Shown here in pieces: positions 32,214 to 36,259 of a stretch of DNA of 43,299 bases. The stretch is from the IMG/VR virus record IMGVR_UViG_2703718838_000011; one strand, written 5' to 3'. The notes below the pieces were generated by a model that saw only the letters and a program-made list of their open reading frames with translations, made no database searches and was not told where the DNA came from. Position 1 is the stretch's first letter, and each line of letters opens with the position of its first letter. This DNA is from a virus. Taxonomy: Duplodnaviria; Heunggongvirae; Uroviricota; Caudoviricetes. The position numbers and the translations under genes are program-made.

Positions 32214-32753
32214 TCATATAGCCCCCAGCATCATCTGCACCATCTCCATCAGTGGACCGGTTAACCCAGGGTCAACGCGATACATCTCCACGATCCCCTC
32301 GCTCAACTCTTTCAGCTTTTGATGGCGTGGCGCATCCATTGCGACGGCAATCTTCGCTTCGCTGGTTTCTTTCTCCAGCCGAGCCAGGCGGGCCATAACG
32401 TTGTCTTCTGGTAGCAGACGGTTGCGGTATTCAATCGGCAGGACCGCCAGGATTGCCGGAGTCAGCTGGCGAACGTTCTCACGGTACCGTTCGCTGTTGA
32501 AATGGTTATCCAGGAAGCGGAAAAGCTTCTGCCGCTTTCGGCAGAGATCGTCAGGGAAAGTGATGTCATAACCACCCTGCGCCCGGTACTCTTCGACGAT
32601 CAGAGCAGAAACGACATCCTGACCATCTACACCCGCCCATGAACGAACGGCATTTCGAATATCTTCGTGACACGGCCCCTTATAGGTTTGAGCGCGATTT
32701 ATCACCGCTTGTTGCGGTACTCCTGTATCCTGGTAAAACGTAAGTAATTGCAT
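32214..32753 (-). CDS. YdaT-like protein (CII-position regulator/toxin YdaT family)
   Basis: 179-aa ORF directly downstream of cro-like gene, ATG 32753 with SD AAGGGA; same arrangement as Rac ydaS-ydaT. Confidence 0.5.
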   Translation of the reverse strand: MQLLTFYQDTGVPQQAVINRAQTYKGPCHEDIRNAVRSWAGVDGQDVVSALIVEEYRAQGGYDITFPDDLCRKRQKLFRFLDNHFNSERYRENVRQLTPAILAVLPIEYRNRLLPEDNVMARLARLEKETSEAKIAVAMDAPRHQKLKELSEGIVEMYRVDPGLTGPLMEMVQMMLGAI

Positions 32754-32784: not shown

Positions 32785-33015
32785 TCAGGCGGCTGAATGT
32801 GGATGCGGAAACAATTCAGGAAGGTCGGGACGGAATTCATGAGCTTGAATCTGTCCTTCGCTTGCCTTTACCAAAACAGGAACATGGATCGGGGAGATTT
32901 GTTTTTTCCCATTTAACCAGTCACAGACCGTGGATTGGGCCTTACCACATCGCTTCGCTAGCTCTTTCTGACTACCGGCGATTGCAATCGCTTTTTCTAC
33001 AGCAGGGTTTTTCAT
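32785..33015 (-). CDS. Cro-like HTH repressor (YdaS-like)
   Basis: ATG 33015 with SD AGGAG; 76 aa; divergent from cI across the operator region. Confidence 0.7.
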   Translation of the reverse strand: MKNPAVEKAIAIAGSQKELAKRCGKAQSTVCDWLNGKKQISPIHVPVLVKASEGQIQAHEFRPDLPELFPHPHSAA

Positions 33016-33042
33016 AATCGCTCCTTCTATCAATTTAGGTTG

Positions 33043-33071
33043 ATTATGTTTATCGCTTTAACGAATGTCAA
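33043..33071 (-). promoter_or_regulatory. candidate PR (cro promoter)
   Basis: Minus-strand TTGACA (33071-33066), 17-nt spacer, CATAAT (33048-33043); overlapped by operator sites. Confidence 0.5.
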
Positions 33072-33112
33072 TCGCCTATGCGATTTTTTGCTTATTAATC
33101 GCTGTGGCGATA
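33051..33112. promoter_or_regulatory. OR operator cluster: AATCGC-N4-GCGATT palindromes
   Basis: AATCGCCTATGCGATT at 33070-33085 (perfect arms), AATCGCTGTGGCGATA at 33097-33112, degenerate TATCGCTTTAACGAAT at 33051-33066. Confidence 0.55.
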
Positions 33113-33116
33113 ATAT
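33088..33116 (+). promoter_or_regulatory. candidate PRM (cI promoter)
   Basis: TTGCTT (33088-33093), 17-nt spacer, TAATAT (33111-33116), overlapping the third operator; weak -35 as expected for an activated promoter. Confidence 0.35.
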
Positions 33117-33144
33117 TTATGAAGGTTATTAGGGGGTATCTTTA

Positions 33145-33828
33145 ATGAGTTTTTCTGAGCGATTAGATCGCGCAATGAATGAGGCGGGTTATACACAGGG
33201 CAAGCTAGCTAAGGCAGTTGGCATGGCACAGTCAAGTGTTAACAAGCTGCTAAATGGTGCATCAAGCTCAAGAAAAACGGTCGAGATAGCTTCTGTTCTC
33301 AATGTTCGCCCTGAATGGCTTTCCACGGGATCCGGACCGATGCGTAACGATGGCCAGCTACCGCCTCCCATTACCGCGACAAAAAAAGACTCAAACATAT
33401 TCAGAGTTGACGTACTTGACCTGACATTTAGCGCGGGGCCAGGTTCTTTCATGATTTCTGAGTTTGTTGAGGTTCTACACGCCATTGAGTTCACAACCGA
33501 ACACGCTCGTTCACTCTTCGGAAATCGTTCTCAGGAAGACGTAAAAGTAATGACGGTCGATGGCGACAGCATGTGTCCAACTATACAGTCTGGTGACAGA
33601 TTGTTTTTCGATATTTCTGTAAGAAACTTCAAGGTCGACGGTGTTTATGCGTTCGTTTTCGGACAACATTTCCATGTGAAGCGCTTGCAGATGCAGGGCG
33701 ATAGGTTGGCAGTTTTGTCTGATAACTCAGCTTATGAGAAGTGGTACATTAACGAAGGTAATCAGGATCAACTCTACGTAATGGGTAAGGCATTGATTCA
33801 TGAATCAATAAAGTATAACCGATTGTAA
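33145..33828 (+). CDS. cI: CI-like prophage repressor (HTH domain plus S24 LexA-like autopeptidase domain)
   Basis: N-terminal HTH (QGKLAKAVGMAQSSVNKLLNG), C-terminal peptidase motifs (DGDSM serine, downstream VKRL lysine); SD AGGGGG. Confidence 0.85.
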   Translation: MSFSERLDRAMNEAGYTQGKLAKAVGMAQSSVNKLLNGASSSRKTVEIASVLNVRPEWLSTGSGPMRNDGQLPPPITATKKDSNIFRVDVLDLTFSAGPGSFMISEFVEVLHAIEFTTEHARSLFGNRSQEDVKVMTVDGDSMCPTIQSGDRLFFDISVRNFKVDGVYAFVFGQHFHVKRLQMQGDRLAVLSDNSAYEKWYINEGNQDQLYVMGKALIHESIKYNRL

Positions 33829-33872: not shown

Positions 33873-34235
33873 ATGAAATCGGAATTATTTCATAGTGAAG
33901 CAAACTCCGAGATTATCACAGCGGATGAGTTCATTGATTTCATAAATTCATTCAAAAAACCAATAACTTGCCAAATCTGCGGGAACCAGTCATGGTCTGT
34001 AGTTGGTGCCTTTGATCTTGATGTAGAAGAAAATCAGCCAAAACATCATGTGATCGAAACACTTAGTTATGCACAATACAAACCTGATACTGATAGTGCT
34101 GTGACATATCCTGGCGGTATGCCACTATTTCGAATCACGTGTGATCACTGCGCACATGTACTGCTTTTTTCTTATAAAAAAGCCAGGACACTGATTAATA
34201 AAAGAAAAGAAGATCAAGGAGAGGATGGGAAGTGA
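33873..34235 (+). CDS. zinc-ribbon-like protein of unknown function (cassette gene A)
   Basis: ATG 33873 with SD AAGGA; 120 aa; two C-x2-C pairs (CQIC and CDHC); 45 nt after cI stop. Confidence 0.5.
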   Translation: MKSELFHSEANSEIITADEFIDFINSFKKPITCQICGNQSWSVVGAFDLDVEENQPKHHVIETLSYAQYKPDTDSAVTYPGGMPLFRITCDHCAHVLLFSYKKARTLINKRKEDQGEDGK

Positions 34236-34864
34236 TGGGCCCATTTCTCAAAGCTGTCCCAGACTGCGGTTCTGGCATTGATAAAGATGACCTGTACCCC
34301 AATGTTCAAAACAGACTACGCGTCGATAAAGAAGAAATGTATACTAACTTTATCAAATCAACAGATGAAGCTAATGAAACTGATGGGGGAAATGAAATGT
34401 CATCAGTTAGCCGTGAAGAAATGCAAGCACTTCTAGCTGCCAATAAGGCGGAGATGGAGTCCATTGCATCTTCGATTAGAGCTGAAATGGCTTTGTCACG
34501 CGAGAATATGAACGTTCAGCTGGCATCGCTCAATTCATCTATTAGCTCTATTTCTTCTAAAATTGAAGGGAAAATGGATAGCGTTGATGGGGATGTAAAA
34601 GCCATCAATGGCAAATTCGAAGGTATACAAGGGCAAATTACAGGAATAAACACTGCGATTGGCGGTATTCAATCAGGTATTTCCACTAGGCTTGCTATTT
34701 TTGGCGTTATCATTGCGGTTGTCGTTGCATTACCTAGTCTTGTTTCTGCCTTGAAGAGTGATCCGCCCGTAGTTCAACCAGTAGCGCAGCAACCTGTTAT
34801 CATCCAATTACCTCAAGAACCAACTACTCCACGAGTACTTCACCAACAGGAAAAATCAAAGTAA
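34235..34864 (+). CDS. coiled-coil membrane protein of unknown function (cassette gene B)
   Basis: ATG 34235 overlaps stop of gene A (TGATG), SD GGAGAGGA; 209 aa; one TM helix LAIFGVIIAVVVALPSLVSAL; Pro/Gln-rich C-terminal tail. Confidence 0.5.
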   Translation: MGPFLKAVPDCGSGIDKDDLYPNVQNRLRVDKEEMYTNFIKSTDEANETDGGNEMSSVSREEMQALLAANKAEMESIASSIRAEMALSRENMNVQLASLNSSISSISSKIEGKMDSVDGDVKAINGKFEGIQGQITGINTAIGGIQSGISTRLAIFGVIIAVVVALPSLVSALKSDPPVVQPVAQQPVIIQLPQEPTTPRVLHQQEKSK

Positions 34865-34890
34865 ACCGGCATTATGCCGGTTTTCATATT
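34864..34890 (+). terminator. rho-independent terminator ending the cI operon
   Basis: Stem AACCGGC/GCCGGTT (34864-34870/34876-34882) followed by TTTCATATTCCTTTT. Confidence 0.7.
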
Positions 34891-35207
34891 CCTTTTCTCA
34901 CCATAGCAGTGACATCCCACAACACTCCTTTGTGAATCACATTTCCAACCGCGCGACGCTTAGTCTCCAAGCTATCTACTATCGCATCTCGACTTATCAC
35001 CACACCGTTGATTATCTACTCGACAACTGCACCGCCAATCTCGCCAGCCATGAAAGCAGCGCGATCTTCCAGCAGCTCATCACGTGACATATCCATTCCT
35101 AAACCCATATCAATATCCCCGCCTGGTGTTTTTTTGAGCATATCACGCATCTCATACAAAAATAAATCACTTTATAAATCAAATAATAATCGGCAAAATC
35201 ACAATAT

Positions 35208-35250
35208 TATCGTTTAAGCGATTGATAAAATAAATCGCCTTAGCTATCAT
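35208..35250 (+). promoter_or_regulatory. candidate OL/PL: promoter TTGATA-N17-TATCAT with AATCGC-type operator half-sites
   Basis: -35 TTGATA 35222-35227, -10 TATCAT 35245-35250; TATCGTTTAAGCGATT at 35208-35223 and AATCGC at 35233-35238. Confidence 0.4.
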
Positions 35251-35329
35251 CACCCCATCGAGAAACACTAAGCGCATCAAGTTCAAACGTTCCGCTGGCC
35301 TGGCGACAAGGGCAAACGAGGGGATTGAG

Positions 35330-35599
35330 ATGAAAGGTAATACGAAGAAAACAGGCATGATCGGCTTTGGAGCATGCTGGGCACGTAAATTCTATTCACG
35401 CCAAAAGCCAATGCAACTCCCAAGTTCTCGATCGAATGGCGGGAAAGGTTCAAACAGCCCTGAAGCAAAACACCATCGCCGCGCCCAGCAGAGATTCAAC
35501 AAAACAGGCGGCATTCCTCGCGGCAAAGCCTACGTGAAAATGTACCGCCTGGGATATCGCAGCGAGAGCCGAAAAGACCTTATGCGAGCGACTCAATAG
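35330..35599 (+). CDS. small basic protein, possible N-like antiterminator (first gene after PL)
   Basis: ATG 35330 with SD GAGGGGA; 89 aa, Lys/Arg/Gly-rich, low complexity; assignment by position only. Confidence 0.3.
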   Translation: MKGNTKKTGMIGFGACWARKFYSRQKPMQLPSSRSNGGKGSNSPEAKHHRRAQQRFNKTGGIPRGKAYVKMYRLGYRSESRKDLMRATQ

Positions 35600-35873
35600 G
35601 TTTCAGGGCTAACGGCTGATCCTGTTCCGGCACATATCGCTCTTTGACAATAACAGCCAGTTTTTGCTTAGCCGCAGGGTCGTCATTAGATGTGACGAGT
35701 CTGTTTATCTGTTCTGAAAGTGAAAACCATCCGTGAGTATCGCAAACGTAAACCACTGATGGAACTTCACGAATAGTTGGTGGTTTTACTTTGATGTTAA
35801 CCAACTGATTTGTCTGGTTAAAAGACAAAGAATCTTCACCACAAATAGGACATGGCTTAGTTACTGATTTCAT
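35580..35873 (-). CDS. zinc-ribbon protein of unknown function, antisense to the early-left operon
   Basis: ATG 35873 with SD AAGGA; CPICG...C.THG motif; 97 aa. Confidence 0.4.
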   Translation of the reverse strand: MKSVTKPCPICGEDSLSFNQTNQLVNIKVKPPTIREVPSVVYVCDTHGWFSLSEQINRLVTSNDDPAAKQKLAVIVKERYVPEQDQPLALKPIESLA

Positions 35874-35893
35874 AGTTATTCCTTGCTGGCTGT

Positions 35894-36259
35894 GTGAGAA
35901 CTACCAGCATACCACCGAGCCTGAAGTGGATAAAAGACAGGCACATAAGAGTGGGTTTCGCGGTGGTGAACTGCAGAGTTAAAACGCTCAACTGTGAAGA
36001 TCAGCACCACGGCACCACCAGCGAAGTTCACTCAGCAATAGTGGAGAACATCATGGTTCATCAGCACTACGGTACACAGACAGTAAACCGCGGCGCAGTT
36101 CAGCCTGGAATGCTCGTCAAACACAAGGATTCAACCTGGACGGCATCAGCTAATGCTCGTGGTCGTTTGTATCTGCATCGCGGCGTTGAGATGACTTACA
36201 CCAGGGATTTGCTGGTTGAAGTTTACCTGAACGGTCTGGGGCATGGACTCAGCCACTAG
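35894..36259 (+). CDS. hypothetical protein (start uncertain: GTG 35894 or ATG 36053 with SD GGAGAA)
   Basis: 121-aa ORF in track; internal ATG at 36053 has a better RBS. Confidence 0.35.
   Translation: MRTTSIPPSLKWIKDRHIRVGFAVVNCRVKTLNCEDQHHGTTSEVHSAIVENIMVHQHYGTQTVNRGAVQPGMLVKHKDSTWTASANARGRLYLHRGVEMTYTRDLLVEVYLNGLGHGLSH

Follow-up and report, generated by a model that had tools for sequence, protein, structure and literature searches.

Introduction

In lambdoid phages, exclusion functions have historically been found between cI and N, among them rexAB, nun, hex, stk and bstA. Here we analyze a two-gene cassette, genes A and B (33873-34864), that occupies the rexAB-equivalent slot in a 43,299-nucleotide (nt) stretch of DNA (Caudoviricetes, IMG/VR record IMGVR_UViG_2703718838_000011; this whole stretch is called the window below), which carries a lambdoid, Rac-like prophage of Escherichia coli. 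The product of gene A is a zinc-ribbon protein of 120 amino acids (aa); that of gene B (209 aa) is a coiled-coil protein with a membrane anchor at its C-terminus. Our analysis identifies B as the conserved component of a phage-borne module and the zinc ribbon as one of three interchangeable partners. The cI-N interval in general is a hotspot of mosaic diversity, which carries rexAB in lambda and bstA in BTP1 (PMC8585504). In phage 434, the PRM mRNA also serves for translation of Hex, a protein that prevents RecA-stimulated cleavage of the repressor (PMC3564112).

Lambda RexAB, which excludes T4 rII and other phages by depolarizing the membrane, consists of a 279-aa, DNA-binding protein (RexA) and a protein with four transmembrane (TM) helices (RexB). 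Like rexAB, A and B are two adjacent genes on the cI strand in the slot between cI and OL/PL; they also pair a soluble, presumably cytoplasmic protein with an inner-membrane protein, and expression in the lysogen is presumed for both systems. The proteins themselves are different. A is a small Cys4 zinc ribbon, B a long coiled coil with a single C-terminal TM helix, and sequence similarity is lacking, as neither A nor B matches RexA (PF15968), RexB (PF15969) or SieB (PF14163) in Pfam at E <= 1. SieB, SieA and HK97 gp15 are likewise small, prophage-made inner-membrane proteins that act on superinfecting phages. They are, however, single proteins, whereas A and B are an obligate pair. Also, one of the loci compared below (L017) carries a separate SieB gene beside its B-like gene, and B is therefore no substitute for SieB.

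A two-gene cassette in the rexAB slot

Gene A (33873-34235, plus strand; phrog_4293, 2.5e-33) starts 44 nt after cI with an ATG at 33873 and ends with a TGA at 34233-34235. Gene B (34235-34864, plus strand; phrog_5820, 1.3e-70) starts with an ATG at 34235-34237, so that the A stop and the B start overlap in the sequence TGATG at 34233-34237, and its stop codon is located at 34862-34864; translation could also begin at a GTG at 34232. An AAGGA lies 8 nt 5' of the ATG of A and an AAGGAG 13 nt 5' of the ATG of B. RefSeq has both open reading frames (ORFs), each named "hypothetical protein", in the five complete genomes of E. coli with a 99.9% identical copy. The terminator scan found no terminator-like site in the cI-A interval or in the A-B interval. 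Immediately downstream of B the hairpin AAACCGGCA-UUA-UGCCGGUUU with its U-tract (34863-34890) is terminator-like by scan and by folding: the stem has 9 bp (hairpin 34863-34883), and the surrounding 51 nt fold at -14.4 kcal/mol (z = -5.0), a value matched by 0/200 shuffles. Its U-tract, UUUUCAUAUU, is only modest, and both strands of the site score in the scan. The hairpin closes the cI-A-B unit and is thus terminator-like in both directions. A further terminator-like hairpin, followed by TTTTCGATAT, was seen upstream of A and B within the coding region of cI (33585-33604, plus strand); this match is probably due to chance.

The cassette lies between OR/PRM-cI on one side and an OL/PL-like site on the other, and therefore in the rexAB slot. 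In detail, the divergent control region (33034-33144) is OR-like. Its two operator-like sites, one at 33071-33084 and the other at 33098-33111, are perfect palindromes of the type ATCGC-N4-GCGAT, and it also contains a PR-like promoter on the minus strand (33071->33043, 11/12 match). The OL/PL-like site (35209-35250, plus strand) comprises two operator-like half-palindromes of the same type with one mismatch each (35209-35222 and 35234-35247), which overlap a sigma-70-like promoter. This PL-like promoter (35222-35250, TTGATA-17-TATCAT) is directed away from cI. Six matches to the operator pattern were counted in the window, with 1.9 expected and six reached by 0/100 shuffles. From this position, A and B are probably expressed in the lysogen by read-through from the PRM/cI promoter.

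These results largely agree with the initial annotation of the locus, which had been made from the sequence alone. Two genes 3' of cI on the same strand with no intervening terminator, a coupling overlap at TGATG and a rexAB-equivalent slot are all borne out by the ORF coordinates, the terminator scan and the operator-like pairs (33071/33098 and 35209/35234) with their PL-like promoter. The same holds for the dissimilarity to RexA, RexB and SieB, for the two C-x2-C pairs of a 120-aa A and for the heptad helix, TM helix and Pro/Gln-rich tail of a 209-aa B, which are described below. A strong terminator had been placed at 34864-34890; the hairpin is there, but "strong" was slightly generous for a site with a modest U-tract that scores on both strands.

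B and its interchangeable partners

The same slot holds related pairs in well-known phages. In HK542/HK244 a lambda-type cI is followed by a gene of 144 aa, a B homologue of 206 aa and then PL and N (PRM, PL and N are annotated in HK542), and HK97 carries cI (gp50), gp49 (88 aa), gp48 (216 aa) and then N (gp47). The match in HK225 is identical to that of HK97, and Klebsiella phage ST15-VIM1phi2.1 has the same gene order. The HK542 protein is 77% identical to B over residues 54-156, and the core, TM helix and PxIIQxP tail of HK97 gp48 align with those of B (29% over 146 aa, E = 8e-13). In contrast, HK97 gp49 and the HK542 144-aa partner (phrog_5893) lack the Cys pairs and have no detectable homology to A.

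This gene order was followed through a sample of 18 loci with a B-like gene, the window included. In 17/18 loci a repressor gene, a small gene and a B-like gene follow one another on the strand opposite to that of cro, and B identity over these loci falls to ~29% (HK97 gp48) and 28% (L014 protein). At the partner-B junction, 14 loci have an overlap of 1-23 nt or a gap of 1-36 nt. The exception is L003 (Xenorhabdus anantnagensis, 1946-5438). There the pair, a 172-aa partner of the 145-aa type with a B homologue, comes after a tape-measure-like ORF of 656 aa and a small lipoprotein, and not after a repressor; the module is therefore able to occupy a moron position among tail genes. The distance between repressor and partner varies from 44 nt in the window to ~380 nt in L013 (3161-3541) and ~425 nt in HK97 (L021, 1564-1988), and in L010, one of the 17, the two are separated by a further ORF (3214-3588) of 124 aa, which starts with a hydrophobic segment near its N-terminus. 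Because of this variation some versions of the module may be transcribed from a promoter of their own or include further small genes.

The gene 5' of B belongs to one of three families. The zinc-ribbon or Z type is found in the window, L020, L014 and L015/L016, the ~145-170-aa type (phrog_5893) in HK542, L005, L008, L013, L017 and Xenorhabdus and perhaps in L012, and the S type (~85-100 aa) in HK97 (gp49), L022, L007, L011 and L018 and perhaps in L010. A hexapeptide common to partner types, SW(S/Y)V(V/M)G, had prompted the idea of a single fold, with the S and 145-aa types as zinc-less relatives of A. This idea was rejected: hhalign among the three partner families gave a probability of ~0 for all three pairs, i.e. 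no homology was detected.

The N-terminus of B changes together with the partner. The B N-termini of the window and of L020 are alike (E = 9e-10; ...FL(K/R)AV.DCG..IDK.DLYP) and the Z partners of the two loci share 50% identity, and yet the C-terminal halves of the two B proteins belong to different subfamilies. Within each of the other two partner types the B N-termini are likewise shared. This co-variation is the strongest available evidence, although indirect, that the partner may act on the cytoplasmic N-terminus of B.

The zinc-ribbon partner itself is not confined to the B family. Distant A homologues also follow a repressor; in L014 the next gene encodes a 173-aa B-like protein, while in L015 (755-1045) and L016 (1930-2220) a distant A-type protein is followed by a 96-aa protein (MEARVAKLEADVEHIK...LLFGAIIAATLGLAGIMAKGFHWF; phrog_3556) without the NKAE core. 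This 96-aa protein consists of a short coiled coil and a C-terminal TM helix and weakly matches XhlA (E = 0.003). It thus shares a membrane-perturbing architecture with XhlA and other holin-associated short coiled coils; the match is, however, below the Pfam threshold, window B has no XhlA match, and the module is located in the immunity region and not in a lysis cassette. A holin or spanin role was rejected, as the holin and endolysin genes of the window lie elsewhere in the prophage.

A profile search collected the B family in 116 clusters that span the Enterobacterales, with Escherichia, Salmonella, Klebsiella, Enterobacter, Citrobacter, Kosakonia, Cedecea, Leclercia, Yersinia, Serratia, Xenorhabdus, Proteus, Providencia, Morganella and Pantoea among the genera. 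Some clusters are annotated "DUF1640 domain-containing"; apart from these, every database name in the B family and module loci examined is "hypothetical", without a functional label. Among complete E. coli genomes (n = 5426) the window variant is present in 5, the HK97 type in 52 and the HK542 type in 51, always in the chromosome, and the three near-identical variants together reach ~2%. A scan of 185,579 species-representative genomes returned only 2 loci, one of which (Lachnospiraceae) was discarded as a likely spurious coiled-coil match. The distribution of the module is patchy and phage-borne. Two conjugative plasmids of Providencia stuartii encode a stretch that shares 43% identity with residues 53-136 of B (NZ_OY979224.1, 153295-153546; NZ_OY979118.1, 197260-197511).

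Architecture of the two proteins

An alignment of 27 homologues divides B into zones with sharply different mean identities. The N-terminus (residues 1-55; 34235-34399, plus strand) is variable (18%) and characteristic of each partner type. Next comes a conserved part (residues 56-150; 34400-34684, plus strand; 62-78%), which begins with the core VSREEMQALLAANKAEMESIASSIRAEM and continues into heptads. The core (residues 56-100, 62%) carries the motif (S/T)REELxAxLxxNKAE, with E62, A65, L67, K71, A72 and E73 among its invariant residues. The heptads (residues 101-150, 78%) are xxIxGxx units (SKIEGKM, DSVDGDV, KAINGKF, EGIQGQI, TGINTAI and GGIQSGI in the window); the hydrophobic periodicity of B peaks at 3.5 residues, and the homologues P0016, P0022, P0025, P0026, P0027 and P0028 show indels of exactly 7 residues. 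The single TM helix (residues 153-173, LAIFGVIIAVVVALPSLVSAL; 34691-34753, plus strand) coincides with the Kyte-Doolittle maximum and stands in heptad register with the coiled coil; L153, F156, V164 and A165 are invariant. Its identity of 73%, next to 78% in the juxtamembrane heptads and as opposed to 18% in the N-terminus, suggests that the helix is more than a passive anchor. The tail (residues 174-209; 34754-34861, plus strand; 31%) is rich in Pro and Gln (7 of each among its 36 residues) and contains the motif QP(I/V)IIQ(V/L)PQ, which is also present in HK97 gp48. We infer an N-in topology from the large N-terminus without a signal peptide, from the cytoplasmic partner and from some subfamilies with almost nothing past the TM helix; the tail would then presumably be periplasmic.

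The AlphaFold2 (AF2) monomer of B shows a long helix (residues 60-142), a kink and a second helix (145-173), the rest being disordered. A fold search with this model was dropped, since a single long helix with a predicted local distance difference test (pLDDT) of 58 is too poor a query. Pfam gave only sub-threshold coiled-coil matches for B, and phrog_5820 is labeled "function unknown". Matches to Baculo_PEP_C, P10, MakE, reovirus sigma-1 and haemagglutinin were rejected, being below the cut-offs and explained by coiled-coil composition.

B was also compared with DUF1640/CCDC90-like proteins (PF07798; mitochondrial MCUR1 and CCDC90B and prokaryotic relatives). It has the same combination of a coiled-coil stalk and a C-terminal anchor, and in both the stalk is capped at its N-terminal end by a conserved motif; (V/I)(S/T)REE(L/I), which is invariant in B, resembles the DUF1640 beta-layer consensus [aliphatic]-A-T-K-x-[DE] (PMC4786415). 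The B profile search reaches proteins named DUF1640, and the B family profile (A2) aligns with that of subfamily A5 with an hhalign probability of 99.9 (E = 3e-35), a value to which coiled-coil bias possibly contributes. All 15 members of A5 match PF07798 at E <= 0.01, but only at profile positions 75-171 (stalk and anchor), and A5 itself is sub-threshold: the gathering score of 33.5 bits is not reached by P0079 (31.1, the sole A5 score listed) or by the L014 B-like protein (25.1), and window B has no match at E <= 1. In place of the head domain (profile ~1-70), which is missing, B has its partner-specific N-terminus, which is predicted to be disordered. As the scores stay below the threshold, the head domain is lacking and coiled-coil matches can be convergent (PMC3695513), the link likely reflects a distant relationship and not membership. 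By analogy to DUF1640, B may be oligomeric, and a trimer is suggested.

A start-capable codon lies 1-5 codons 5' of (S/T)REE(L/I) in 15/15 B-family loci (window, L002, L005, L007, L008, L010-L014, L017, L018 and L020-L022), the N-termini of which are otherwise unalignable. It is an ATG in 10/15 and encodes Val, always as GTG, in the other 5. In the window this codon is Met55 (34397-34399) at the end of the variable N-terminus, preceded by GGGGGA. It may be an internal start that gives a short isoform without the partner-specific N-terminus, or merely a conserved hydrophobic residue. Internal starts are familiar from SieB/Esc and from S107/S105, and a possible internal start in B recalls the former.

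Protein A contains two CxxC pairs, C33-x2-C36 and C90-x2-C93. In an alignment of 14 sequences (down to 23% identity) these four cysteines and Y101 are invariant and W41 is nearly so. The AF2 model is confident (pLDDT 84, predicted template modeling score 0.71) and comprises a helix (residues 17-25), a beta-sheet (41-100) that bears both CxxC knuckles, each flanked by strands, and a second helix (101-117). At the level of fold and cysteines this is a Cys4 zinc ribbon, with metal binding predicted. No match was found for A in Pfam or NCBIfam, phrog_4293 is labeled "function unknown", and A fell into no named zinc-ribbon family and matched no solved fold; for the module as a whole, too, the comparison with solved structures gave no match. 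With HMMER, an exhaustive search of 1.8 billion representative proteins returned only 13 relatives. Searches of 50,697 phage records by megablast with the cassette and by tblastn with A gave no matches, and only B finds phage relatives. A is thus a small zinc-ribbon protein of an undescribed family, and presumably cytoplasmic, since the Cys4 site and the lack of any hydrophobic segment fit that location.

What the cassette may do

We favor an exclusion system that is RexAB-like or toxin-antitoxin-like, with a probability of roughly 35%, in which the small partner would provide specificity, sensing or inhibition and the stalk-plus-TM part of B would be the membrane effector. A and B would form a two-component accessory module made in the lysogen. 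B would stand as a coiled-coil stalk, probably a trimer, with its C-terminal helix in the inner membrane, its N-terminus in the cytoplasm and its tail in the periplasm, and A would dock on the variable N-terminus as the specificity, sensor or inhibitor subunit. An infecting phage would perturb A and so release the conserved part of B, which would then damage or depolarize the membrane, or block a membrane step of the infection, and the superinfecting phage would be excluded. The logic would be that of RexA/RexB or of an antitoxin and its toxin, built from unrelated proteins. The slot between cI and OL/PL and the absence of a terminator-like site between cI and B support this explanation. So do the gene order kept in 17/18 loci, the close coupling of partner and B, the high conservation of the juxtamembrane heptads and TM helix, the features of A that fit a cytoplasmic protein, the patchy, phage-borne distribution and the separate SieB gene of L017. 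Swappable sensors on a conserved effector are typical of defence systems, and the module is a good candidate for a new exclusion system, with defence as a plausible interpretation.

Several observations weigh against it. The initial annotation had relied on the cI-distal region as a classic site of exclusion; this is correct for a hotspot that holds rexAB and bstA (PMC8585504), but cI-linked genes can have non-defence roles, as the passenger Hex of phage 434 shows (PMC3564112). PADLOC-DB v2.0.0 (models no newer than 2023), PADLOC being named there as a check on the locus, matched no defence model: it gave no match for A, only PbeC at E = 0.019 for B, and nothing significant among ten partner and B variants. 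Neither are the A/B proteins in the DefensePredictor supplements. The system had also been called undescribed, and the literature searched indeed holds no functional study of HK97 gp48/gp49, of the HK542 genes or of DUF1640 in phage defence; it is, however, not a one-off, as it belongs to a family (PHROG 4293 + 5820) that includes HK97 and HK542/HK244. The gaps of ~380-425 nt in HK97 and L013 mean that co-transcription with cI is not assured everywhere, the AF2 monomer of B is of low confidence (pLDDT 58), and the conserved, presumably periplasmic motif would fit an injection block as well as a pore. Clear homology to known structural, lysis or regulatory proteins, which would have spoken against the proposal in the initial annotation, was not found for either protein; B has a distant, sub-threshold link to DUF1640/CCDC90-like proteins.

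An injection block is accordingly one alternative to consider, although an unlikely one. The TM helix and the periplasmic QPIIIQVPQ tail of B would hinder DNA injection, for instance by engaging inner-membrane or periplasmic entry machinery, while A would only aid the assembly or stability of B; the cell would survive, and no abortive infection would take place. P22 SieA and HK97 gp15 belong to a known class of inner-membrane proteins that lysogens express and that keep DNA from entering, the position beside cI would imply expression in the lysogen, and a TM helix with a short strand-like motif in a Pro/Gln spacer has been kept from the window to HK97 gp48. On the other hand, the DUF1640-type subfamily (L020, P0127-P0132) keeps the core and a zinc-ribbon partner with almost no periplasmic tail, and a swapped cytoplasmic partner matched to a co-varying N-terminus is hard to explain by a purely periplasmic block.

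Less probable is a role in lysogenic conversion, in which B would be a DUF1640/CCDC90-like tail-anchored scaffold that alters a host membrane or stress function (ion homeostasis, respiration, envelope stress, or ribosome/membrane tethering as in ElaB/YqjD) with no direct anti-phage role. The profile link of the B family to DUF1640-annotated proteins speaks for it, but the PF07798 match is sub-threshold and covers stalk and anchor only. Also, the module keeps strictly to the immunity slot of phages and does not occur in core genomes of the host (2 loci in 185,579 species-representative genomes), and rapid partner swapping would be unusual for a housekeeping scaffold.

We rank next, as still less likely, that the module tunes the phage's own switch, i.e. 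lysogen stability, induction or the lysogenic-lytic transition. RexA/RexB reportedly help the transition from lysogeny to lytic growth, and a small zinc ribbon such as A could bind DNA or protein. The control of repressor cleavage by 434 Hex is a further precedent (PMC3564112). The repressors beside the module are, however, unrelated: those of the window, HK97, HK542, L005, L007, L008, L010, L013 and L017 contain an S24 domain, whereas those of L011, L012, L016, L018, L020 and L022 are short helix-turn-helix (HTH) proteins without S24. A role tied to one repressor or, as for Hex, to RecA cleavage was therefore judged unlikely. The Xenorhabdus module even lies outside the immunity region, and such a scheme offers no obvious reason for anchoring B in the membrane by a conserved TM helix.

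The least probable scenario is an addiction module that stabilizes the prophage or immunity region without phage sensing, with B as membrane toxin and the upstream partner as labile antidote: a small, translationally coupled pair with the putative neutralizer upstream and matched to the B N-terminus fits type II toxin-antitoxin systems in gene order and overlap, but no toxin-antitoxin family similarity was found in Pfam or NCBIfam, the partners have none of the DNA-binding domains that type II antitoxins typically carry, and many toxin-antitoxin systems defend against phages anyway, so that this scenario overlaps with the exclusion system favored here.

Flanking prophage region

The repressor upstream of A (33145-33828, plus strand) is a cI-type protein of 227 aa with Peptidase_S24 and HTH_3 domains (PF00717, 5e-17; PF01381, 8e-8; phrog_4, 1e-57) and is annotated in RefSeq as a LexA family regulator. 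Beyond the divergent control region, a YdaS/Cro-like gene (32785-33033) and a YdaT/CII-like gene (32214-32753) follow on the minus strand, with replication, Q, lysis and head genes farther on. Between the terminator-like hairpin and the OL/PL-like site a short ORF remnant (34884-35160, minus strand) converges on the hairpin that closes cI-A-B; RefSeq lists it as a pseudogene with an internal stop in L001. A segment of 631 bp (35317-35947) is missing in the prophage of E. coli 2018-10-1CC, where 4 bp are found instead and the rest is 94-98% identical. It contains, just 3' of the PL-like promoter, a basic 89-aa ORF (35330-35599, plus strand) without a Pfam match, which possibly encodes an N-like protein, and a convergent 97-aa ORF (35580-35873, minus strand) with a CPxC...C motif, the sole match of which is weak and Lar-like (E = 0.03).

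Conclusions

The module has no assigned function despite its presence in the model phage HK97 and in ~2% of complete E. coli genomes, and HK97 gp49/gp48 are the best experimental entry point. Its design, an anchored coiled coil with swappable partners and an adaptor, provides hypotheses that are cheap to test in E. coli and HK97 genetics. A negative outcome for defence would mean that a prime lysogen-expressed slot also holds non-defence cargo. If defence is confirmed, the module would be a new exclusion or defence system and would give a functional handle on the bacterial DUF1640/CCDC90 architecture. More tentatively, and with some doubt, we consider that lambdoid prophages may share a widespread, unrecognized anti-phage system, in which a tail-anchored DUF1640-like effector would be combined with three sensor families on matching adaptors; a Met55-type short isoform without the adaptor may then regulate full-length B, in the way in which Esc regulates SieB. 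Bacterial and phage DUF1640-like proteins would, if this is true, gain their first function, and the rex slot would gain a new class of sensor-swapping membrane effectors.

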